This document shows positions 28,776 to 39,145 of a DNA stretch of 64,000 nucleotides, in pieces. A program made the translations under genes and the position numbers. Positions within the stretch are counted from its first letter, which is position 1, and each line of letters starts with the position of its first letter. Location: assembly GCF_024502345.1 (NCBI RefSeq), contig NZ_JALDNN010000001.1; one strand, written 5' to 3'. The notes below the pieces were generated by a model. The model saw nothing but the letters and a program-made list of their open reading frames with translations. It was not told the origin of the DNA and did no database searches. This DNA is from Escherichia coli (GTDB lineage Bacteria; Pseudomonadota; Gammaproteobacteria; Enterobacterales; Enterobacteriaceae).

Positions 28776-31060
28776 CAGATCTTACATGCGCCGCTTTCGC
28801 AGCCATCGTCCTGGATTGACGGCACCAGATCGTCCTGCGCGTCTTCAGCGCCGTCACGGGTGTTCTGATAATACAGCGTTTTGACCCCGAATTTGTAGGC
28901 GGTGAGCAGGTCTTTCAGCAATTGCTGCATCGGCACTTTTCCTGACGGGAAGCGTGACGGATCGTAGTTGGTGTTAGCAGAGATCGACTGATCGATAAAT
29001 TTCTGCATGATACCCACCAGTTGCAGGTAGCCATCGTTACCCGGCATTTCCCACAGCAGCTCATAGGCGTCGTGCAGATGCTCGTAGTCCGGCACTACCT
29101 GGCGCAGAATACCGTCTTTCGACGCTTTGATGCTGACGTAACCGCGCGGCGGTTCAATACCGTTAGTGGCGTTAGAGATCTGTGAAGAAGTCTCGGACGG
29201 CATCAGGGCAGAAAGCGTGGAGTTACGCAGACCGTGCGTTTTGATCGATTCACGCAGTGCTTCCCAGTCGTAATGCAGTGGTTCATTAGCGATGGCATCC
29301 AGATCTTTCTTATAGGTATCGATCGGCAGGATCCCTTTCGCGTAAGTGGTTTCGTTAAACCACGGGCACGCGCCTTGCTCTTTCGCCAGCTCATTAGACG
29401 CTTTCAGCAGGTAATACTGAATCGCTTCGAAGGTTTTATGCGTCAGGTTGTTGGCGCTGCCGTCGGAGTAACGTTTACCGTGCTTCGCCAGGTAGTAAGC
29501 GAAGTTGATCACACCAATACCCAGCGTACGACGACCCATCGCCCCGCGTTTGGCGGCCGGGATCGGGTAATCCTGATAATCCAGCAGCGCGTCAAGTGCA
29601 CGAACCGCCAGAATCGCCAGCTCTTCCAGTTCATCCAGGCTGTTAATTGCGCCCAGATTGAATGCAGACAGCGTACACAGCGCGATTTCACCGTTTTCGT
29701 CGTTGACGTCGTTCAGCGGTTTGGTCGGCAGGGCGATTTCCAGGCACAGGTTAGACTGGCGCACTGGCGCGATGGCCGGATCAAACGGGCTATGGGTATT
29801 GCAGTGGTCAACGTTCTGAATATAGATACGACCGGTAGACGCACGTTCCTGCATCATCAGCGAGAACAGCTCAACGGCTTTCACACGCTGCTTGCGGATG
29901 CTGTCGTCTTTCTCATATTTGGTATACAGGCGTTCAAACTCTTCCTGATCGGCGAAGAATGCGTCGTACAGCCCCGGTACGTCGGACGGGCTGAACAGGG
30001 TGATATCTTCACCTTTCAGCAGGCGGGTATACATCAGTTTGTTGATCTGTACCCCGTAGTCCATATGACGCACGCGGTTGCCTTCCACCCCACGGTTGTT
30101 TTTCAACACCAGCAGGCTTTCAACTTCCAGATGCCACATCGGGTAGAACAGCGTTGCCGCACCGCCGCGCACGCCGCCCTGAGAGCAGGATTTCACCGCC
30201 GTCTGGAAATGTTTGTAGAACGGAATACAACCGGTATGGAACGCTTCGCCACCGCGAATCGGGCTACCCAGCGCACGAATACGCCCGGCGTTGATGCCGA
30301 TCCCGGCACGCTGGGAAACATATTTCACAATCGCGCTGGAGGTGGCGTTGATGGAATCCAGGCTGTCGCCGCACTCGATCAGTACGCAGGAGCTGAACTG
30401 ACGAGTCGGGGTACGCACGCCGGACATGATTGGCGTCGGCAGCGAAATTTTAAATGTGGAAACCGCGTCGTAAAAACGCTTCACATATTGCAGGCGCGTT
30501 TCACGCGGGTAGTTCGAGAACAGGCACGCGGCAACCAGAATATAAAGGAACTGGGCGCTTTCGTAGATTTCGCCGGTCACGCGGTTCTGTACCAGATATT
30601 TGCCTTCCAGTTGCTTAACGGCAGCATAAGAGAAGGTCATATCACGGTCGTGATCGATAAACGTGTCCATCTGCTTGAACTCTTCTTCCGTGTAGTCTTC
30701 CAGCAGATGATTATCGTATTTGCCCATCTCGACCATTTTCACCACGTGGTCGTACAGCGCAGGCGGCTCAAACTGGCCGTAGGCTTTTTTACGCAGGTGG
30801 AAGATCGCCAGGCGCGCGGCGAGATACTGATAATCCGGCGCATCACGGGAGATCAGGTCTGCGGCAGCCTTGATAATGGTTTCGTGGATGTCAGAGGTCT
30901 TGATACCGTCATAAAACTGAATGTGGGAGCGCAGCTCGACTTGGGAAATCGAAACGTTATGCAGTCCTTCTGCCGCCCAATCCAGAACGCGATGGATTTT
31001 GTCGAGATTGATGCGCTCTGTGCTACCGTCGCGCTTTGTCACCAGCAGATTCTGATTCAT
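28775..31060 (-). CDS. nrdA: class Ia ribonucleotide reductase alpha subunit NrdA (761 aa)
   Basis: ORF 761 aa with ATP-cone N-terminus (MNQNLLVTKRDGSTERINLDKIHRVL) and the conserved C-terminal Cys pair. Confidence 0.97.
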   Translation of the reverse strand: MNQNLLVTKRDGSTERINLDKIHRVLDWAAEGLHNVSISQVELRSHIQFYDGIKTSDIHETIIKAAADLISRDAPDYQYLAARLAIFHLRKKAYGQFEPPALYDHVVKMVEMGKYDNHLLEDYTEEEFKQMDTFIDHDRDMTFSYAAVKQLEGKYLVQNRVTGEIYESAQFLYILVAACLFSNYPRETRLQYVKRFYDAVSTFKISLPTPIMSGVRTPTRQFSSCVLIECGDSLDSINATSSAIVKYVSQRAGIGINAGRIRALGSPIRGGEAFHTGCIPFYKHFQTAVKSCSQGGVRGGAATLFYPMWHLEVESLLVLKNNRGVEGNRVRHMDYGVQINKLMYTRLLKGEDITLFSPSDVPGLYDAFFADQEEFERLYTKYEKDDSIRKQRVKAVELFSLMMQERASTGRIYIQNVDHCNTHSPFDPAIAPVRQSNLCLEIALPTKPLNDVNDENGEIALCTLSAFNLGAINSLDELEELAILAVRALDALLDYQDYPIPAAKRGAMGRRTLGIGVINFAYYLAKHGKRYSDGSANNLTHKTFEAIQYYLLKASNELAKEQGACPWFNETTYAKGILPIDTYKKDLDAIANEPLHYDWEALRESIKTHGLRNSTLSALMPSETSSQISNATNGIEPPRGYVSIKASKDGILRQVVPDYEHLHDAYELLWEMPGNDGYLQLVGIMQKFIDQSISANTNYDPSRFPSGKVPMQQLLKDLLTAYKFGVKTLYYQNTRDGAEDAQDDLVPSIQDDGCESGACKI

Positions 31061-31137
31061 GTATGTCGTACCTGTTTTTGGAATTCTTTCCGCAATAGTT
31101 TCATGCAGACTACCTGTAGTACGGGAAGCTGCTTAGA

Positions 31138-31186
31138 ACACTATATATAGGGGGTATGTTTGGGATTCACTGCAAGATAGTGTGAA
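31138..31186 (-). promoter_or_regulatory. two NrdR-box-like palindromes (ACACTATATATAGGGG and CACTGCAAGATAGTGTG) upstream of nrdA
   Basis: Paired 16-bp palindromic elements about 85-125 bp upstream of the nrdA ATG, resembling the NrdR operator consensus. Confidence 0.55.
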
Positions 31187-31213
31187 AATGGCCCTCTTGC
31201 AAGTGCATAACTT

Positions 31214-31222
31214 TGTGGATAA
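31214..31222 (-). promoter_or_regulatory. DnaA box (TTATCCACA on the minus strand) in the nrdA promoter region
   Basis: Exact match to the DnaA box consensus TTATNCACA. Confidence 0.6.
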
Positions 31223-31755
31223 CTCAGGAAGGAAAAAGTGGCTTTCGCGCACCTTAGGTCAGACAAGGTGTCCGGGAAAGTCAATGGGAAGAGAAAAATT
31301 TGTTAAAAATAACTGTTCGGCGATTTCTTGAACGGCAGAATAGGTTGGATAAATTGATATAGATGGTTTATTAATCTTTTTGCTAATGATTGCAAAAATT
31401 GATCTAAGCACGAGTCATCACATAATCTGATGTATCAGTTGTGGTCAATATATAAGCGAATGTAAGCGATTGTTGATGTCGAAATGGTTGTTTTCTATTC
31501 GGTTATTGTTAAATGCGAAGCCATTTTGTTAATTTAGCTTATATTATAAGAAAATTATTCATTACTTTAATTTAGTTTAAATATAACTGGTATCCCTTAA
31601 GGTTATTAACTTGAATTATGACGCACTGATACTATTCATCAAATAATAATAAAATAGCTATTGCATCTGGTTGGACAATTTACAAAAGAAAGATAACCCA
31701 TATTGTATAATGCGTTTAAATATGCCGTCTTATATAAAATGATGGTCAGATTAAT

Positions 31756-34700
31756 ATGCGGATTATCTTTCTACGCAAGGAGTATTTATCTCTACTCCCG
31801 TCAATGATTGCATCTCTTTTCTCTGCTAACGGTGTCGCGGCGGCCATTGATTTATGCCAGGGATATGATATCAAAGCGAGTTGTCACGCCAGCAGGCAAA
31901 GCCTTTCAGGCATTACGCAGGTCTGGAGTATCGCCGATGGGCAATGGCTGGTTTTTTCGGATATGACCAATAATGCCAGCGGTGGGGCCGTATTTTTGCA
32001 ACAAGGAGCGGAATTTACATTATCACCAGAAAATGAAACTGGAATGACTCTGTTTGCCAATAACACCGTTTCAGGAGAATATAATAACGGCGGGGCAATA
32101 TTTGCTAAAGAAAACTCAACGCTGAATCTTACGGATGTTATTTTTTCTGGTAACGTCGCAGGCGGCTATGGTGGCGCAATCTATTCTTCTGGTACTAACG
32201 ATACCGGTGCCATCGATTTACGTGTCACTAACGCCGTGTTTCGCAATAACATCGCTAATGACGGCAAAGGTGGTGCAATTTATACCATCAATAATGATAT
32301 CTATTTAAGTGATGATGTTTTTAACAATAACCAGGCATATACATCAACAAGTTACAGTGATGGCGATGGCGGCGCAATCGATGTCACAGATAATAATAGC
32401 GACAGCAAGCATCCTTCAGGTTATACGATAATAAATAACACTGCCTTTACAAATAACACTGCCGAAGGTTATGGCGGGGCGATATATACCAATAGCGCGA
32501 CGGCTCCCTATCTTATTGATATTTCTGTTGATGACAGCTACAGCCAGAACGGAGGCGTGTTAGTCGATGAGAACAATAGCGCAGCAGGCTATGGAGATGG
32601 TCCTTCCTCTGCGGCGGGTGGCTTTATGTATCTCGGCTTAAGTGAAGTTACCTTTGATATTGCCGACGGAAAAACGCTGGTTATCGGCAATACAGAGAAT
32701 GACGGAGCTGTTGACTCTATTGCTGGTACCGGGTTGATCACCAAAACAGGTTCCGGCGATCTGGTACTTAATGCAGATAACAATGACTTTACTGGTGAGA
32801 TGCAGATTGAAAACGGTGAAGTTATTCTGGGCCGCAGCAACTCCCTGATGAATGTCGGAGATACTCATTGCCAGGACGATCCGCAAGACTGCTACGGTCT
32901 GACGATAGGGAGTATTGATAAGTACCAGAATCAGGCAGAGCTAAACGTTGGCTCGACCCAACAAACTTTTGTGCACGCATTGACGGGCTTTCAGAATGGC
33001 ACTTTAAATATCGATGCTGGTGGCAACGTTACTGTTAATCAGGGCAGTTTTGCTGGCATCATCGAAGGTGCTGGTCAGCTCACCATTGCGCAAAACGGCA
33101 GCTACGTGCTGGCAGGGGCGCAGTCGATGGCGCTAACCGGCGATATAGTCGTTGATGATGGTGCGGTGCTTTTGCTGGAAGCCGACGCGGCAGATCTTAC
33201 CGCTCTCCAGGACGATCCGCAGTCGATCGTGTTAAACGGCGGTGTGCTCGATCTCTCTGATTTCTCCACCTGGCAGAGCGGCACATCATACAATGATGGC
33301 CTTGAAGTCAGTGGCAGCAGCGGAACGGTTATCGGCAGTCAGGATGTGGTAGATCTTGCAGGCGGAAACGATATGCATATCGGCGGCGACGGGAAAGATG
33401 GCGTCTACGTGGTGATCGATGCGGGTGACGGGCAGGTCAGCCTGGCAAATGACAATCAATACCTCGGCACAACGCAAATCGCTTCCGGTACGCTGATGGT
33501 GAGCGACAACTCGCAGCTTGGAGATACCCATTATAACCGCCAGGTTATCTTTACCGATAAGCCACAAGAAAGCGTGATGGAGATTACTGCCAATGTCGAT
33601 ACTCGCTCTACAACGACTGAGCATGGGCGTGATATTGAAATGCGCGCCGACGGTGAAGTGGCAGTTGATGCGGGGGTAGACACGCAGTGGGGCGCACTGA
33701 TGGCTGACAGCAGCGGGCAGCATCATGATGAGGGTAGCACATTGACGAAAACGGGGGCGGGTACGCTGGAGCTGACCGCCAGCGGTACAACGCAGTCGGC
33801 GGTACGTGTCGAAGAAGGCACCCTGAAAGGTGATGTTGCTGATATCCTTCCTTATGCTTCATCACTGTGGGTTGGTGACGGGGCAACGTTCGAGACTGGC
33901 GCGGATCAGGATATTCAGTCTATCGATGCTACTTCCAGCGGCACTATCGACATCAGCGATGGTACGGTTTTGCGCCTGACCGGGCAGGATACTTCCGTCG
34001 CCCTTGATGCCTCACTGTTTAACGGCGATGGGACGCTGGTAAATGCTACCGATGGCGTGACGTTGACAGGCGAGCTTAATACCAACCTTGAAACTGACAG
34101 CCTGACCTATCTTGCTGACGTGACGGTTAATGGTGATCTGACCAATACGTCCGGTGCGGTTAGCCTGCAAAATGGCGTCGCTGGCGATACGCTGACGGTA
34201 AACGGTGATTATACCGGCGGCGGTACGCTACTGTTCGACAGCGAATTAAACGGCGATGACTCGGTAAGCGATCAATTGGTGATGAACGGTAATACTGCTG
34301 GCAACACAACTGTGGTGGTTAACTCCATTACAGGGATTGGTGAGCCGACATCGACAGGCATTAAAGTGGTTGATTTCGCAGCTGATCCCACGCAGTTTCA
34401 AAACAATGCACAGTTCAGTCTGGCTGGCAGTGGCTACGTCAACATGGGAGCGTATGACTACACGCTAGTGGAAGATAACAACGACTGGTATCTGCGATCG
34501 CAAGAAGTAACGCCGCCATCGCCACCTGAGCCAGACCCGACTCCCGATCCTGATCCCACGCCGGATCCTGACCCAACCCCCGACCCGGCCCCTACGCCTG
34601 CTTACCAGCCGGTGCTGAATGCCAAAGTTGGCGGTTATCTCAATAACCTGCGGGCGGCAAATCAGGCGTTTATGATGGAGCGACGCGATCACGCTGGTAG

Positions 34701-35508
34701 CGATGGTCAGACGCTGAATTTACGTGTTATCGGCGGACGTTATCATTACACGGCGGCAGGGCAACTGGCTCAGCAGGAAGACACTTCTACGGTGCAGCTT
34801 AGCGGTGACCTGTTTAGCGGGCGCTGGGGCGATGATGGCGAGTGGATGCTTGGGATTGTAGGTGGCTACAGCGATAACCAGGGCGACAGCCGCTCGAGTA
34901 TGACCGGAACTCGCGCCGATAACCAGAACCACGGTTATGCCGTTGGGCTGACCTCAAGCTGGTATCAGCACGGTAATCAGAAGCAGGGGGCCTGGCTGGA
35001 TAGCTGGCTGCAATACGCGTGGTTTAACAATGATGTTTCCGAACAAGACGATGGCGTGGATCATTACCATTCGTCGGGGATTATCGCCTCGCTGGAAGCG
35101 GGGTATCAGTGGTTACCGGGGCGTGGTGTGGTGATTGAACCGCAGGCGCAGGTGATTTATCAGGGCGTGCAGCAGGATGATTTTACCGCCGCTAACCGTG
35201 CGCGCGTGTCACAATCGCAGGGTGATGATATTCAGACGCGGCTGGGTTTACACAGCGAATGGCGTACCGCTGTTCATGTCATACCAACATTAGATCTGAA
35301 TTATTATCACGATCCCCATTCGACGGAAATTGAAGAGGATGGCAGCACTATCAGTGACGATGCGGTGAAGCAATGGGGTGAAATAAAAGTGGGAGTCACG
35401 GGCAATATCAGTCAGCGAGTGTCCCTGCGCGGCAGCGTGGCGTGGCAGAAAGGGAGTGATGATTTTGCCCAGACGGCAGGGTTTTTGTCGATGACGGCGA
35501 AATGGTAA
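31756..35508 (+). CDS. yfaL: AIDA-I-type autotransporter adhesin YfaL/EhaC (1250 aa)
   Basis: Large ORF with repeated GGA(I/V)Y beta-helix passenger motifs, a proline-rich PEPDPTPDPDPTPDPDPTPDPAPTP linker and a C-terminal beta-barrel translocator ending in ...AKW; preceded by about 690 bp of AT-rich DNA. Confidence 0.93.
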   Translation: MRIIFLRKEYLSLLPSMIASLFSANGVAAAIDLCQGYDIKASCHASRQSLSGITQVWSIADGQWLVFSDMTNNASGGAVFLQQGAEFTLSPENETGMTLFANNTVSGEYNNGGAIFAKENSTLNLTDVIFSGNVAGGYGGAIYSSGTNDTGAIDLRVTNAVFRNNIANDGKGGAIYTINNDIYLSDDVFNNNQAYTSTSYSDGDGGAIDVTDNNSDSKHPSGYTIINNTAFTNNTAEGYGGAIYTNSATAPYLIDISVDDSYSQNGGVLVDENNSAAGYGDGPSSAAGGFMYLGLSEVTFDIADGKTLVIGNTENDGAVDSIAGTGLITKTGSGDLVLNADNNDFTGEMQIENGEVILGRSNSLMNVGDTHCQDDPQDCYGLTIGSIDKYQNQAELNVGSTQQTFVHALTGFQNGTLNIDAGGNVTVNQGSFAGIIEGAGQLTIAQNGSYVLAGAQSMALTGDIVVDDGAVLLLEADAADLTALQDDPQSIVLNGGVLDLSDFSTWQSGTSYNDGLEVSGSSGTVIGSQDVVDLAGGNDMHIGGDGKDGVYVVIDAGDGQVSLANDNQYLGTTQIASGTLMVSDNSQLGDTHYNRQVIFTDKPQESVMEITANVDTRSTTTEHGRDIEMRADGEVAVDAGVDTQWGALMADSSGQHHDEGSTLTKTGAGTLELTASGTTQSAVRVEEGTLKGDVADILPYASSLWVGDGATFETGADQDIQSIDATSSGTIDISDGTVLRLTGQDTSVALDASLFNGDGTLVNATDGVTLTGELNTNLETDSLTYLADVTVNGDLTNTSGAVSLQNGVAGDTLTVNGDYTGGGTLLFDSELNGDDSVSDQLVMNGNTAGNTTVVVNSITGIGEPTSTGIKVVDFAADPTQFQNNAQFSLAGSGYVNMGAYDYTLVEDNNDWYLRSQEVTPPSPPEPDPTPDPDPTPDPDPTPDPAPTPAYQPVLNAKVGGYLNNLRAANQAFMMERRDHAGSDGQTLNLRVIGGRYHYTAAGQLAQQEDTSTVQLSGDLFSGRWGDDGEWMLGIVGGYSDNQGDSRSSMTGTRADNQNHGYAVGLTSSWYQHGNQKQGAWLDSWLQYAWFNNDVSEQDDGVDHYHSSGIIASLEAGYQWLPGRGVVIEPQAQVIYQGVQQDDFTAANRARVSQSQGDDIQTRLGLHSEWRTAVHVIPTLDLNYYHDPHSTEIEEDGSTISDDAVKQWGEIKVGVTGNISQRVSLRGSVAWQKGSDDFAQTAGFLSMTAKW

Positions 35509-35509
35509 T

Positions 35510-35640
35510 CGCTGTCTGACCATCACTATTGCCGGATGCGGCGTAAACGCCTTATCTGGCCTACGGAGAGCATTTGTAGGCCTGATAAGACGCGGCAAGC
35601 GTCGCATCAGGCATTGGCGCGGTTGCCGGATGAATCCAAA
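35510..35640. repeat. REP/BIME element between convergent yfaL and ubiG
   Basis: GCCGGATGCGGCGTAAACGCCTTATCTGGCCTAC and GTAGGCCTGATAAGACGCGGCAAGCGTCGCATCAGGC palindromes. Confidence 0.8.
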
Positions 35641-35648
35641 CAACAACC

Positions 35649-36371
35649 TCACTTATTCTGCGTGTGCAGCATATAGTTCACATCCACGCCGGGGCCGAGT
35701 TTAAAAGTATTAGTGATCGGGTTGTAATGTAGCCCGGTTATATGTCGCTCTTTAAGGCTTGTCTGATCTACCCAGCCAAGCAGCTCTGCCGGTTTAATAA
35801 ACTTCTTCACATCATGCGTGCCTTTGGGCACCATGCGCAAAATATATTCCGCGCCAACCACCGCCATCAGCCATGACTTGCCGTTGCGGTTAAGCGTCGA
35901 GAAAAAGACATCGCCGCCCGGTTTCACCAGTTGCGCACAGGCTCTGACCACTGACTGCGGATCGGGGACGTGCTCCAGCATCTCCATGCAGGTCACCACA
36001 TCATACTGCCCGGCATGTTTTGCCGCGTGCTCTTCCACGGTTTCCTGCACGTAATCCACCTGAATGCCGCTTTCCAGCGCGTGCAGCTTTGCCACCTGCA
36101 ATGGCTCAAAGCCCATATCCAGACCGGTCACCGTCGCGCCTTCGCGCGCCATACTCTCGGCCAGAATGCCGCCGCCACAACCGACATCGAGCACCTTTTT
36201 GCCAAATAAGCCGCCAGCACGCTCGGCAATATAGCCCAGACGCAGCGGGTTAATGCGGTGCAGCGGTTTGAACTCACCTTCCAGATCCCACCAGCGGGAG
36301 GCGACGGCTTCAAATTTAGCGATCTCTTCGTGGTCTACGTTATGGTTTACCGGCGATTTTTCGGCATTCAT
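35649..36371 (-). CDS. ubiG: bifunctional ubiquinone biosynthesis O-methyltransferase UbiG (240 aa)
   Basis: Start [21 protein letters not shown] at 36371; SAM-binding motif [13 protein letters not shown]. Confidence 0.95.
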
Positions 36372-36517
36372 TGGCACTTCTACTCCGTAATTGGCAAGAC
36401 AAACGAGTATATCAGGCATTGGATGTGAATAAAGCGTATAGGTTTACCTCAAACTGCGCGGCTGTGTTATAATTTGCGACCTTTGAATCCGGGATACAGT
36501 AGAGGGATAGCGGTTAG

Positions 36518-39145
36518 ATGAGCGACCTTGCGAGAGAAATTACACCGGTCAACATTGAGGAAGAGCTGAAGAGCTCCTATCTGGATTATGCGATGTCGGT
36601 CATTGTTGGCCGTGCGCTGCCAGATGTCCGAGATGGCCTGAAGCCGGTACACCGTCGCGTACTTTACGCCATGAACGTACTAGGCAATGACTGGAACAAA
36701 GCCTATAAAAAATCTGCCCGTGTCGTTGGTGACGTAATCGGTAAATACCATCCCCATGGTGACTCGGCGGTTTATGACACGATCGTCCGTATGGCGCAGC
36801 CATTCTCGCTGCGTTACATGCTGGTAGACGGTCAGGGTAACTTCGGTTCCATCGACGGCGACTCTGCGGCGGCAATGCGTTATACGGAAATCCGTCTGGC
36901 GAAAATTGCCCATGAACTGATGGCCGATCTCGAAAAAGAGACGGTCGATTTTGTTGATAACTATGACGGCACGGAAAAAATTCCCGACGTCATGCCAACC
37001 AAAATTCCTAACCTGCTGGTGAACGGTTCTTCCGGTATCGCCGTAGGTATGGCAACCAACATCCCGCCGCACAACCTGACGGAAGTCATCAACGGTTGTC
37101 TGGCGTATATCGATGATGAAGACATCAGCATTGAAGGGCTGATGGAACACATCCCGGGGCCGGACTTCCCGACGGCGGCAATCATTAACGGTCGTCGCGG
37201 TATTGAAGAAGCTTACCGTACCGGTCGCGGCAAGGTGTATATCCGCGCTCGCGCAGAAGTGGAAGTTGACGCCAAAACCGGTCGTGAAACCATTATCGTC
37301 CACGAAATTCCGTATCAGGTAAACAAAGCGCGCCTGATCGAGAAGATTGCGGAACTGGTAAAAGAAAAACGCGTGGAAGGCATCAGCGCGCTGCGTGACG
37401 AGTCTGACAAAGACGGTATGCGCATCGTGATTGAAGTGAAACGCGATGCGGTCGGTGAAGTTGTGCTCAACAACCTCTACTCCCAGACCCAGTTGCAGGT
37501 TTCTTTCGGTATCAACATGGTGGCATTGCACCATGGTCAGCCGAAGATCATGAACCTGAAAGACATCATCGCGGCGTTTGTTCGTCACCGCCGTGAAGTG
37601 GTGACCCGTCGTACTATTTTCGAACTGCGTAAAGCTCGCGATCGTGCTCATATCCTTGAAGCATTAGCCGTGGCGCTGGCGAACATCGACCCGATCATCG
37701 AACTGATCCGTCATGCGCCGACGCCTGCAGAAGCGAAAACTGCGCTGGTTGCTAATCCGTGGCAGCTGGGCAACGTTGCCGCGATGCTCGAACGTGCTGG
37801 CGACGATGCTGCGCGTCCGGAATGGCTGGAGCCAGAGTTCGGCGTGCGTGATGGTCTGTACTACCTGACCGAACAGCAAGCTCAGGCGATTCTGGATCTG
37901 CGTTTGCAGAAACTGACCGGCCTTGAGCACGAAAAACTGCTCGACGAATACAAAGAGCTGCTGGATCAGATCGCGGAACTGTTGCGTATTCTTGGTAGCG
38001 CCGATCGTCTGATGGAAGTGATCCGCGAAGAGCTGGAGCTGGTTCGTGAACAGTTCGGTGACAAACGTCGTACTGAAATCACCGCCAACAGCGCAGACAT
38101 CAACCTGGAAGATCTGATCACCCAGGAAGATGTGGTCGTGACGCTCTCTCACCAGGGCTATGTTAAATATCAGCCGCTTTCTGAATACGAAGCGCAGCGT
38201 CGTGGCGGGAAAGGTAAATCTGCCGCACGTATTAAAGAAGAAGACTTTATCGACCGACTGCTGGTGGCAAACACGCACGACCATATTCTGTGCTTCTCCA
38301 GCCGTGGTCGCGTCTATTCGATGAAAGTTTACCAGTTGCCGGAGGCCACTCGTGGCGCGCGCGGTCGTCCGATCGTCAACCTGCTGCCGCTGGAGCAGGA
38401 CGAACGTATCACCGCGATCCTGCCGGTGACCGAGTTTGAAGAAGGCGTGAAAGTCTTCATGGCGACCGCTAACGGTACTGTGAAGAAAACCGTCCTCACC
38501 GAATTCAACCGTCTGCGTACCGCCGGTAAAGTGGCGATCAAACTGGTTGAAGGCGATGAGCTGATCGGCGTTGATCTGACCAGTGGCGAAGATGAAGTAA
38601 TGCTGTTCTCCGCCGAAGGTAAAGTGGTGCGCTTTAAAGAGTCTTCTGTCCGTGCGATGGGCTGCAACACCACCGGTGTTCGCGGTATTCGTTTAGGCGA
38701 AGGCGATAAAGTCGTCTCTCTGATCGTGCCTCGTGGCGATGGCGCAATCCTCACCGCAACGCAGAACGGTTATGGTAAACGTACTGCAGTGGCGGAATAC
38801 CCGACTAAGTCGCGTGCGACGAAAGGGGTTATCTCCATCAAGGTTACCGAACGTAACGGTTTAGTGGTTGGCGCGGTGCAGGTAGATGACTGCGACCAGA
38901 TCATGATGATCACCGATGCCGGTACGCTGGTACGTACGCGCGTTTCAGAAATCAGCATCGTGGGCCGTAACACCCAGGGCGTGATCCTCATCCGTACTGC
39001 GGAAGATGAAAACGTAGTGGGTCTGCAACGTGTTGCTGAACCGGTTGACGAGGAAGATCTGGATACCATCGACGGCAGTGCCGCGGAAGGGGACGATGAA
39101 ATCGCTCCGGAAGTGGACGTTGACGACGAGCCAGAAGAAGAATAA
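36518..39145 (+). CDS. gyrA: DNA gyrase subunit A GyrA (875 aa)
   Basis: ORF 875 aa; catalytic Tyr region AAMRYTEIR; QRDR reads GDSAVYD (Ser83/Asp87, wild type); acidic C-terminal tail. Confidence 0.98.

Follow-up and report, generated by a model that had tools for sequence, protein, structure and literature searches.

Does the proline-rich linker of the Escherichia coli autotransporter YfaL change length so readily that the reach of this adhesin differs from one strain to the next? An initial annotation of a 64,000-nt stretch of E. coli DNA (hereafter, the window) proposed that it could, as the linker appeared to be encoded by a near-tandem nucleotide repeat of the kind that is prone to slipped-strand errors. 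Here we consider the gene and the place of the linker within the protein, the repetitiveness of the linker's DNA, and the linker alleles of other E. coli.

A proline-rich spacer between the passenger and the barrel

The gene (yfaL or ehaC; 31756..35508 on the + strand, from the ORF list and its translation) is intact and encodes a protein of 1,250 amino acids. The NCBIfam equivalog NF007285 covers all of it (residues 1-1250 of 1,250) at 2781.6 bits, as compared to a cut-off of 1459, which confirms the name given by the initial annotation. The Pfam matches are Chlam_PMP, PATR, AC_1 (PF18883), Pertactin, and Autotransporter (PF03797), and the translocator also matches TIGR01414. From Pfam, the AIDA-I transport unit (4MEE), and an AF2 model, the protein has a passenger beta-helix, an autochaperone, a pore helix, and a 12-stranded barrel, so it is a type Va autotransporter adhesin of the AIDA-I family. 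YfaL/EhaC is already known and is nearly universal in E. coli, with annotations of yfaL in 5,419 of 5,426 genomes. Its chromosomal slot is conserved: in the window, it lies between nrdA and ubiG-gyrA, and ubiG and gyrA are downstream of it in 17 of the 18 fetched loci with full flanks. (In the exception, L015, GntR and MFS genes follow ubiG.)

The linker does lie at the passenger/translocator junction. The autochaperone domain (AC_1, aa 794-904, 34135..34467, +) caps the beta-helical passenger at its C-terminal end and aligns with the AIDA-I transport unit (4MEE) and with the autochaperone of IcsA (3ML3); the Pertactin match is just upstream of the linker. The final conserved strand ahead of the linker is WYLRS (aa 911-915, 34486..34500, +), and its W, Y, L, and S do not vary among homologues of 30-36% identity (columns W132, Y133, L134, and S136 of alignment A1). 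The AF2 model of aa 780-1250, whose mean pLDDT is 84.5, has strands at 131-135 and 137-140 (model numbering) around this motif. After the linker come a predicted pore-spanning alpha-helix (aa 956-970, 34621..34665, +; AF2 helix 177-191, pLDDT 87-92), which aligns with the helix segment of 4MEE, and the barrel (from about aa 986 to 1249 or 1250, 34711..35505, +; PF03797 at 989-1228, TIGR01414, and 12 strands from AF2). Between these well-predicted strands and the helix, residues 920-948 are modeled as coil with a pLDDT of 55-60. The alignment to 4MEE likewise places the linker in a short stretch that WYL(T/R)S precedes and the pore helix follows.

The linker directly follows the end of the cap (...WYLRSQE), and its flanking sequences are ...TGGTATCTGCGATCGCAAGAA and TACCAGCCGGTG. 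It spans 34507-34602 and encodes the 32 residues VTPPSPP-EPDPT-PDPDPT-PDPDPT-PDPAPT-PA, or VTPPSPPEPDPTPDPDPTPDPDPTPDPAPTPA (aa 918-949), starting with the codon GTA at 34507 for V918. This includes the peptide that was first reported, PEPDPTPDPDPTPDPDPTPDPAPTP; the reported start was also right, but the proline-rich segment ends two bases beyond the reported 34600. Proline makes up 16 of the 32 residues, versus 1.3% of the remainder of YfaL, and this pattern is far beyond chance.

The peptide can be divided into a head and units A to D, all on the + strand. The head, VTPPSPP (aa 918-924, 34507..34527), is the site of a -9 nt variant that lacks SPP and of the B2-type substitution to VNPTPPP. 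Unit A, EPDPT (34528..34542; GAG CCA GAC CCG ACT), begins with a glutamate that is rare, as most alleles have aspartate there. Unit B is PDPDPT (34543..34560; CCC GAT CCT GAT CCC ACG), and unit C has the same residues (34561..34578; CCG GAT CCT GAC CCA ACC). Unit D is PDPAPT, followed by PA (aa 942-949, 34579..34602), and it is the site of +6 nt variants with PDPAPDPT or PDPAPAPT.

The repeat is in the peptide more than in the DNA

The near-tandem nucleotide repeat is partly there, but it is weaker than claimed. Units B and C are adjacent and fit the proposed 18-nt consensus, except that unit C starts with CCG instead of CCC. The two units are identical at 14 of 18 bases, and the four differences are all synonymous and at third positions. 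With a minimum score of 30, Tandem Repeats Finder did not report any repeat. A separate repeat search found no tandem family, and its sole find was a pair of 12-nt direct repeats, CTGATCCCACGC, with a spacing of 168 nt: one copy is upstream of the linker and encodes ADPT (34382..34393, +), and the other is within the linker (34550..34561, +). The longest exact direct repeat within the window's linker is just 8 nt (GATCCTGA). Given the lack of any Tandem Repeats Finder hit and the 14/18 identity of the best units, this linker does not have the several identical tandem units of DNA that are expected of a phase-variable repeat.

As a null model, we re-encoded the linker peptide with local codon usage from a background of 32 ORFs. 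With this background, the longest repeat was 8 nt versus 10.9 ± 2.9 nt in the null (P = 0.16), and the identity at an offset of 18 was 0.684 versus 0.752 ± 0.038 (P = 0.05). The linker's DNA is thus about as repetitive as the peptide requires, or slightly less so, and the similarity of the DNA is a by-product of the repeat in the peptide. We also considered whether the codons had been scrambled against slippage. A background of 3 genes gave a stronger deviation, but with the 32-ORF background there was only a trend (P = 0.05-0.16; P = 0.054 for a chi-square test of proline codons), so we make no such claim.

Other alleles are more repetitive. The -18 nt allele has exact repeats of 17-20 nt, the +18 nt allele has a repeat of 29 nt, and the K-12-type allele has a repeat of 11 nt, as compared to only 8 nt in the window, so the mutability of the linker may depend on the allele. 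As for other features on either strand, we found just short, chance antisense ORFs, and no Rfam family matched within 31000-37000.

Length classes across E. coli

The initial annotation expected the length of the linker to vary between strains, and it named an identical repeat number in all strains as the contrary outcome. We compared alleles from 5,419 complete E. coli genomes, by sampling and with identity bands, and found at least nine classes of linker length. Because the length of the linker differs among strains, that contrary outcome does not hold. About 63% of genomes have the same length as the window, about 28% are shorter by 18 nt, about 8% are longer by 6 nt, and about 3% are shorter by 24 nt. 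The rare classes are -12, -9, +12, and +18 nt, plus a deletion of 168 nt. In an even-step sample of 60 of the 5,419 genomes, the spans were 601 nt in 38 genomes, 583 nt in 14, 607 nt in 5, and 577 nt in 2, with a large deletion in 1. In all 18 of the loci that we fetched from this sample, the length difference mapped to the linker.

Every length change in the complete genomes is in frame, and the indels end within direct repeats of 3-12 nt. The 168-nt deletion, in strain VTB97022v (L018), ends at the 12-nt repeats 34382-34393 and 34550-34561. The initial annotation viewed the variation as a count of repeat units, but most steps are of 6 nt (one Pro-X pair) rather than whole PxPDPT units, and the length changes little (by about -12 to +6 residues at most). 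Different residues occur at the X positions (E/D, A/E/D, P/Q, T/S/V, and S/L), and all alleles, like distant relatives, maintain PDPT and the Pro-X register.

Identity bands gave workable counts for the -18 class (1,497 genomes at 95% identity or above) and for the L020 type discussed below. Queries for the -24, +6, and +18 classes were confounded by split or partial alignments, and for these we used row sampling instead. Our short queries missed about 1,020 genomes, which presumably have divergent B2-type alleles without a 28-nt seed. Because this census was built from samples and identity bands rather than by extracting the linker from each genome on a phylogeny, rare changes within lineages could have escaped it.

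What maintains the different lengths?

We think that the YfaL linker is probably an indel-tolerant, proline-rich spacer with a stable, species-wide polymorphism in its length and not a fast, reversible switch. The spacer would be an acidic (Pro-X)n peptide of 32 residues, with proline at every second position and with X mostly Asp or Thr, that serves as a tether between the passenger, a beta-helix capped by the autochaperone, and the alpha-helix plugging the barrel in the outer membrane. We infer that it forms an extended, polyproline-II-like, negatively charged stalk, which would keep a distance of a few nanometres between the passenger and the surface of the barrel and LPS. Because the linker has no fold to preserve, in-frame insertions and deletions are tolerated. 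Indels would occur rarely, as slippage or deletion events at imperfect direct repeats of just 3-12 nt. A new length would then be inherited vertically and be transferred among yfaL backgrounds by homologous recombination, and the outcome would be a stable polymorphism of roughly 20-38 residues in at least nine classes.

The sequences of the alleles suggest that the common classes are old variants that are stably inherited. A conserved codon signature distinguishes each class and is common to anywhere from tens of genomes to over 1,000. The synonymous differences between units act as barcodes that are kept across alleles, and the units have not been homogenised. A single length was found throughout the sampled rows of O157:H7 and throughout the sampled laboratory lineages of K-12, B, and C. 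Linker classes also appear to have reached other passenger backgrounds by recombination rather than by recurrent slippage. For example, the passengers of L007 (+6) and L017 (-24) differ by 0.1% over 1.5 kb, yet the linker of L017 is that of L008, and in L012, an O157-like passenger is paired with the -18 linker.

The lengths do follow lineages: 32-34 aa in O157:H7, K-12, and B2 and 26 aa in O104:H4, O103, and O111. Perhaps each lineage has a linker whose length is tuned to how thick its O-antigen or capsule is, which would let the passenger clear this layer; a role in reach has been proposed for another proline-rich autotransporter linker (bioRxiv 10.1101/2022.02.15.480547). We consider this unlikely, as neutral inheritance equally predicts that the lengths would track lineages, and rough K-12 and smooth O157:H7 have the same length. 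Also, we estimate that about 20-38 residues would differ by at most 2-4 nm in contour, which is small relative to O-antigen and capsule thickness.

Alternatively, the immune system could have imposed diversifying selection on the linker as an exposed epitope. The linker is acidic and surface-exposed, its X positions vary, and its nucleotide diversity has a local peak of 9.6%, versus 4-5% in the flanks. In Bordetella, the pertactin repeats (GGXXP)n and (PQP)n vary as well (PMC3279416). Nevertheless, immune selection seems very doubtful to us. The linker's dN/dS is 0.14 with a dS of 0.41, so the peak in diversity is synonymous. This dN/dS is about the same as in the passenger (0.16-0.18) and is below that of the barrel (0.21), so we rejected diversifying selection. 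The conservation of the Pro-X register and of PDPT also argues against an epitope that is under pressure to change.

It is highly unlikely, in our view, that the linker is more than a passive tether, whether as a stalk whose length is adapted to how deep the O-antigen or capsule layer is or as an acid-cleavable Asp-Pro tether that would shed the passenger during passage through the stomach. Asp-Pro is the most acid-labile peptide bond. The linker's composition (it has seven or eight Asp-Pro bonds) and the lineage-linked lengths are the sole pointers to a reading of this kind.

What about the original suggestion, that this is a slippage-prone repeat of the contingency type, with frequent changes in unit number that vary the reach of the adhesin among close strains? 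Length classes do exist, and two of the rare ones are just the one-unit changes that slippage would give. L020-type alleles have an exact 18-nt deletion of one unit between 11-nt repeats, and L023 (+18) has an exact tandem duplication of 18 nt; it is unit B (in the register GATCCTGATCCCACGCCG) that is lost in L020 and doubled in L023. There is also a derivative of the -18 allele, with its 17-20-nt repeats, that is shorter by one more unit (P0005/P0008). And some short-read (Logan) assemblies contain frameshifted products that are truncated in the linker (P0041-P0043 and P0067), which, if real, would mean that slippage is more frequent than we have inferred. Nevertheless, we find a hypervariable repeat most improbable. 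The L020 type is present in 26 genomes and the +18 allele in one strain among 5,418 records, and each common class is one recognisable sequence type, with 26 to about 1,500 genomes. In the sampled lineages, unit number does not vary among close isolates in the way that it would at a contingency locus; instead, the clonal lineages were uniform in every sample. The short exact repeats of the window's allele, the lack of homogenisation of units, and the absence of frameshifts from the complete genomes also argue against frequent slippage.

Finally, we find it hardly credible that the differences in length arose as errors of sequencing or assembly in a difficult, C-rich stretch. The linker is a frequent break point in short-read assemblies of S. 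sonnei and E. coli. However, only complete genomes entered the census, the variants are all in frame, the sequence of each class is reproducible in many independent assemblies, and the classes correlate with the flanking haplotype or the lineage.

Linkers of other autotransporters

A proline-rich spacer of this sort is already known and ordinary, as there are similar ones in TibA, in Aat, and in many AIDA-I-type relatives; the YfaL linker resembles these in its position, its proline content, and its prediction as coil. In E. coli TibA, which is of the AIDA-I type, a proline-rich domain (residues 627-677) lies between the junction region and the membrane-embedded beta-domain (PMC3835316). This is the same architectural place, after the autochaperone, and the lengths are similar, but TibA is another protein with another repeat sequence and its segment is longer (about 50 aa vs. 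32). Aat from Agrobacterium (Atu5364) has a proline-rich linker with the same functional idea, reach, as in the initial annotation. However, that organism is distant, reach is a proposal there too, and length polymorphism is not described.

In the passenger of pertactin, isolates differ in the number of units of two proline-containing repeats, R1 (GGXXP)n and R2 (PQP)n (PMC3279416). YfaL likewise has a polymorphism of repeat number between isolates, with its nine or more classes, but its length changes mostly by Pro-X pairs rather than by whole units. Furthermore, the variation in pertactin is recent and tied to shifts in the vaccine era, while the YfaL classes seem to be old and are lineage-stable, with a dN/dS of 0.14.

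The autochaperone, helix, and barrel of AIDA-I (4MEE) are homologous to those of YfaL (E = 1e-37), which fixes the topology of YfaL. In AIDA-I, however, the slot holds only about 15 residues and is not proline-rich; the YfaL linker is an expansion of it. The (Glu-Pro)/(Lys-Pro) spacer of TonB is rigid, and the procyclins of trypanosomes carry (Glu-Pro)n rods. These are also extended spacers of alternating Pro-acidic dipeptides, but the analogy is one of composition only, without common ancestry. Similarly, the precomputed matches of Pfam Trypan_PARP (PF05887) to the linkers of the YfaL-like homologues P0076 and P0086 reflect shared composition.

Our search for homologous proteins returned mostly fragments, without full-length clusters of YfaL, and was informative for linker variants and for distant relatives. 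In homologues at 30-36% identity, the slot has 10-51 residues, and many of these segments are proline-rich and often PDPT-like: P0086 has seven PDP[DE]PT units, and P0076 has PDPDPN. Because the linker is short or not proline-rich in some others (P0114, with 10 aa, P0102, and P0115), a proline-rich stalk is not essential to this family.

Implications

Because short-read assemblies tend to break at the linker, yfaL alleles should be called with care in draft genomes. Many partial YfaL proteins from S. sonnei end in the linker. We considered an IS insertion and rejected it, as the contig ends are about 14 nt apart, without foreign sequence; the contigs more likely broke for reasons of coverage or assembly.

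YfaL residues 786-1250, which include the linker, serve as a scaffold for surface display (PMC13101318). The natural range of 20-38 residues (10-51 in relatives) suggests that the spacer of such a display protein could be adjusted in Pro-X steps with the protein retained. For E. coli itself, the linker's significance may be little beyond bookkeeping, and its length is a convenient, stable marker for families of yfaL alleles. If the length did control the exposure of the passenger through the LPS layer, then we would have in the linker a neat molecular ruler.

The gene and its linker

The single long ORF that contains window 34507-34602 is yfaL/ehaC (31756..35508, + strand, 1250 aa), as it matches the NCBIfam equivalog NF007285 from end to end (2781 bits versus a cut-off of 1459). 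Pfam identifies Chlam_PMP and PATR repeats in the passenger, an AC_1 autochaperone domain at aa 794-904, a Pertactin domain at aa 811-914, and the autotransporter barrel at aa 989-1228. The initial annotation had the coordinates and peptide of the linker right: translation of the ORF gives VTPPSPP-EPDPT-PDPDPT-PDPDPT-PDPAPT-PA at aa 918-949, in which 16 of 32 residues are proline, versus 1.3% elsewhere in YfaL. In a published autotransporter review, YfaL is assigned to adhesin Group 8 (PMC9289746). The stretch encodes nothing besides this segment of YfaL: antisense ORFs there are short and unremarkable, and the linker region has no matches to Rfam families.

When the C-terminal 471 residues of YfaL are aligned to the AIDA-I transport-unit crystal structure (4MEE, E = 1e-37), the linker's slot comes after WYL(T/R)S, a conserved strand, and before the pore helix. 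AIDA-I, in contrast, has just ~15 residues there. AlphaFold2 modelling of aa 780-1250 (mean pLDDT 84.5) gives residues 920-948 as coil (pLDDT 55-60), followed by a helix (956-970) and then 12 barrel strands. The linker (window 34519-34629, aa 922-958) also weakly matches, in sequence, residues 515-547 of internalin K from Listeria (PDB 4L3A, E = 1e-4), which presumably reflects common proline-rich composition rather than homology.

Linker length varies among strains

A difference in linker length between strains had been proposed, and alignment of yfaL alleles across E. coli bears this out. A 601-nt query around the linker matched 5,419 of 5,426 complete genomes, and we examined an even-step sample of 60 rows. 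The match spanned 601 nt, with no difference from the window, in 38 of the 60, as compared to 583 nt (-18) in 14, 607 nt (+6) in 5, and 577 nt (-24) in 2; one match was split by a 168-nt deletion. In 18 of 18 loci fetched from this sample, the length difference mapped to the linker. An allele-specific query found the -18 allele in 1,497 genomes at 95% identity or above (~28%), while by sampling, the +6 class makes up ~8% of genomes and the -24 class ~2-4%. Rare classes are -12, with two unrelated forms (loci L019 and L020; the L020 type is in 26 genomes at ≥99%, including EAEC 042), -9 (L021 and L022), +12 (L024), and +18 (L023, one strain with two records). The protein database also has a form with a 20-residue linker and forms without most or all of it (P0005/P0008, P0009, and P0010). 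The window's own allele, with E at unit A (34528-34542) and A at unit D (within 34579-34602), is rare (5 genomes at ≥99%).

Several records deserve comment. Only one matches the window exactly across the 601-nt query (L001, NZ_CP080085.1, strain 19SZHZ869Rt). Its yfaL is annotated as a pseudogene, frameshifted by one extra base near window 33765, whereas the window has an intact ORF; the difference may be real or a sequencing error in that record. A record labeled "strain DH5alpha" (H62, NZ_CM135829.1) carries the -18 allele, 100% identical to locus L005, in place of the K-12 allele. At 4.83 Mb, it is larger than the K-12 genome, and the label is possibly mistaken. Among partial YfaL proteins (P0024-P0119), dozens of S. 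sonnei sequences and some E. coli ones have ends that vary within the linker, where short-read contigs stop. Because the upstream and downstream ends of S. sonnei draft contigs (L025-L028) are just ~14 nt apart, with no IS sequence at the ends in the linker, the breaks point to coverage or assembly drop-out in a C-rich stretch. (The upstream contig also begins abruptly, at ~aa 304.) Finally, four proteins from Logan/SRA assemblies (P0041, P0042, P0043, and P0067) have a predicted frame shift within the linker and an early stop (...PIQSPLTSRC*); real alleles or errors, these products would not have a barrel.

The DNA is no more repetitive than the peptide requires

The initial annotation described the linker as a near-tandem nucleotide repeat, which was overstated. 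The best two units, 34543-60 and 34561-78, are similar, with 4 of 18 positions differing, all synonymously. But Tandem Repeats Finder reported no repeat in the linker at its lowest score, a repeat search of the linker DNA gave no tandem family, and the longest exact repeat in the window's allele is 8 nt. If the peptide is re-encoded with the codon usage of 32 ORFs from the window, the expected longest repeat is 10.9±2.9 nt (P = 0.16), and the expected identity at an offset of 18 nt is 0.752±0.038, versus 0.684 observed (P = 0.05). (A background of three genes overstated this deviation towards low repetitiveness.) Because the re-encoded peptide predicts equal or higher repetitiveness, the similarity of the DNA is no more than the peptide repeat forces, and the window's allele shows no sign of recent duplication.

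Origin and pace of length changes

Every linker variant from a complete genome keeps the reading frame, and the steps are mostly multiples of 6 nt, i.e., Pro-X pairs. Since the end points of indels fall in short direct repeats, slippage or microhomology-mediated events do occur in the linker, in line with the initial annotation, and occasionally with exact units: L020 has lost 18 nt (GATCCTGATCCCACGCCG) between 11-nt repeats, and L023 has an exact tandem duplication of the unit that L020 lost. The -12 event has 6 nt of exact microhomology and the -24 event has 3 nt. A 12-nt direct repeat, CTGATCCCACGC, is found at 34382-93 and 34550-61, 168 nt apart, and strain VTB97022v (L018, NZ_CP178670.1) has an in-frame deletion of exactly 168 nt that joins the two copies. 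This takes the end of the autochaperone domain and half of the linker, yet the annotation still treats the gene as intact, at 1194 aa.

Nevertheless, the idea of a hypervariable, slippage-driven feature is not borne out, because on the available evidence, linker length changes slowly. The units carry individual synonymous "barcodes" that are kept across alleles, so the units are not homogenised. Every common class consists of a single recognisable sequence, present in tens to ~1,500 genomes. We saw a single length in every sampled O157:H7 genome, and the same length in every sampled member of the K-12, B and C laboratory lineages; in the K-12-type background (11-nt repeat, roughly two thousand genomes), a unit was duplicated in one strain. 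Mutability probably depends on the allele, given exact repeats of 8 nt in the window, 17-20 nt in the -18 type, and 29 nt in the +18 allele.

Mismatches between linker class and flanking sequence point to recombination. Over 1.5 kb of passenger, the difference between loci L007 (+6) and L017 (-24) is 0.1%, yet L017 has the linker of L008; L012 combines an O157-like passenger with a -18 linker; and L004 (+6) and L005 (-18) are 0.3-0.8% apart upstream. More broadly, yfaL is a strong diversity hotspot and a recombination mosaic: among 17 sampled alleles, the mean pairwise difference is 4-14% along the gene (31756-35508) versus 0.2-1% in gyrA (36518-37500), and B2-type passengers (536, M45, and CUVET19-1704) differ by 22-23% from all others. 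Judging from dN/dS (0.14 in the linker, with dS of 0.41; 0.16-0.18 in the passenger; 0.21 in the barrel), selection on the linker is not special, with the peptide pattern conserved and silent sites not.

The only other in-frame indel site in the 3.75-kb gene is at approximately 33385-33423 (aa ~544-556, ...GGNDMHIGGDGKDGVYVV...), where strain DETEC-S586 is missing 39 nt and B2-type alleles have an additional 6 nt. Downstream, the yfaL-ubiG intergenic region (35509-35648) has REP/BIME-like palindromic elements (tgccggatgcggcgtaaacgccttatc..., gtaggcctgataagacgcg...), and its length is ~60, 127 or 140 nt among strains, by presence or absence of 13 nt and 80 nt. In the B2 strain CUVET19-1704 (L015, NZ_CP115358.1, 4726-5807), ubiG is followed by genes for a GntR-family regulator (frameshifted) and an MFS transporter, unlike in the 17 remaining loci that were fetched with flanks, where gyrA is directly after ubiG.

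Comparison to other autotransporters

This is an ordinary finding, of a known kind. TibA carries a proline-rich domain at the very same place (PMC3835316), as does the Agrobacterium autotransporter Aat, for which a role to "extend the reach" was suggested (bioRxiv 10.1101/2022.02.15.480547), and among autotransporters, pertactin is the classical case of a proline-containing repeat whose unit number is polymorphic (PMC3279416). The slot is variable across the family: relatives of YfaL in Pseudomonas, Budvicia, Citrobacter, Yersinia, and metagenomes (30-36% identity) have 10-51 residues there, which are often PDPT-like and sometimes not proline-rich at all. The linker is most likely an unstructured, acidic, polyproline-like stalk that joins the autochaperone cap to the pore helix and tolerates in-frame indels. 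We infer that it is extended and may act as a spacer; by our own estimate, with each residue of polyproline II adding ~0.3 nm, the observed range of lengths alters the contour by 2-4 nm at most.
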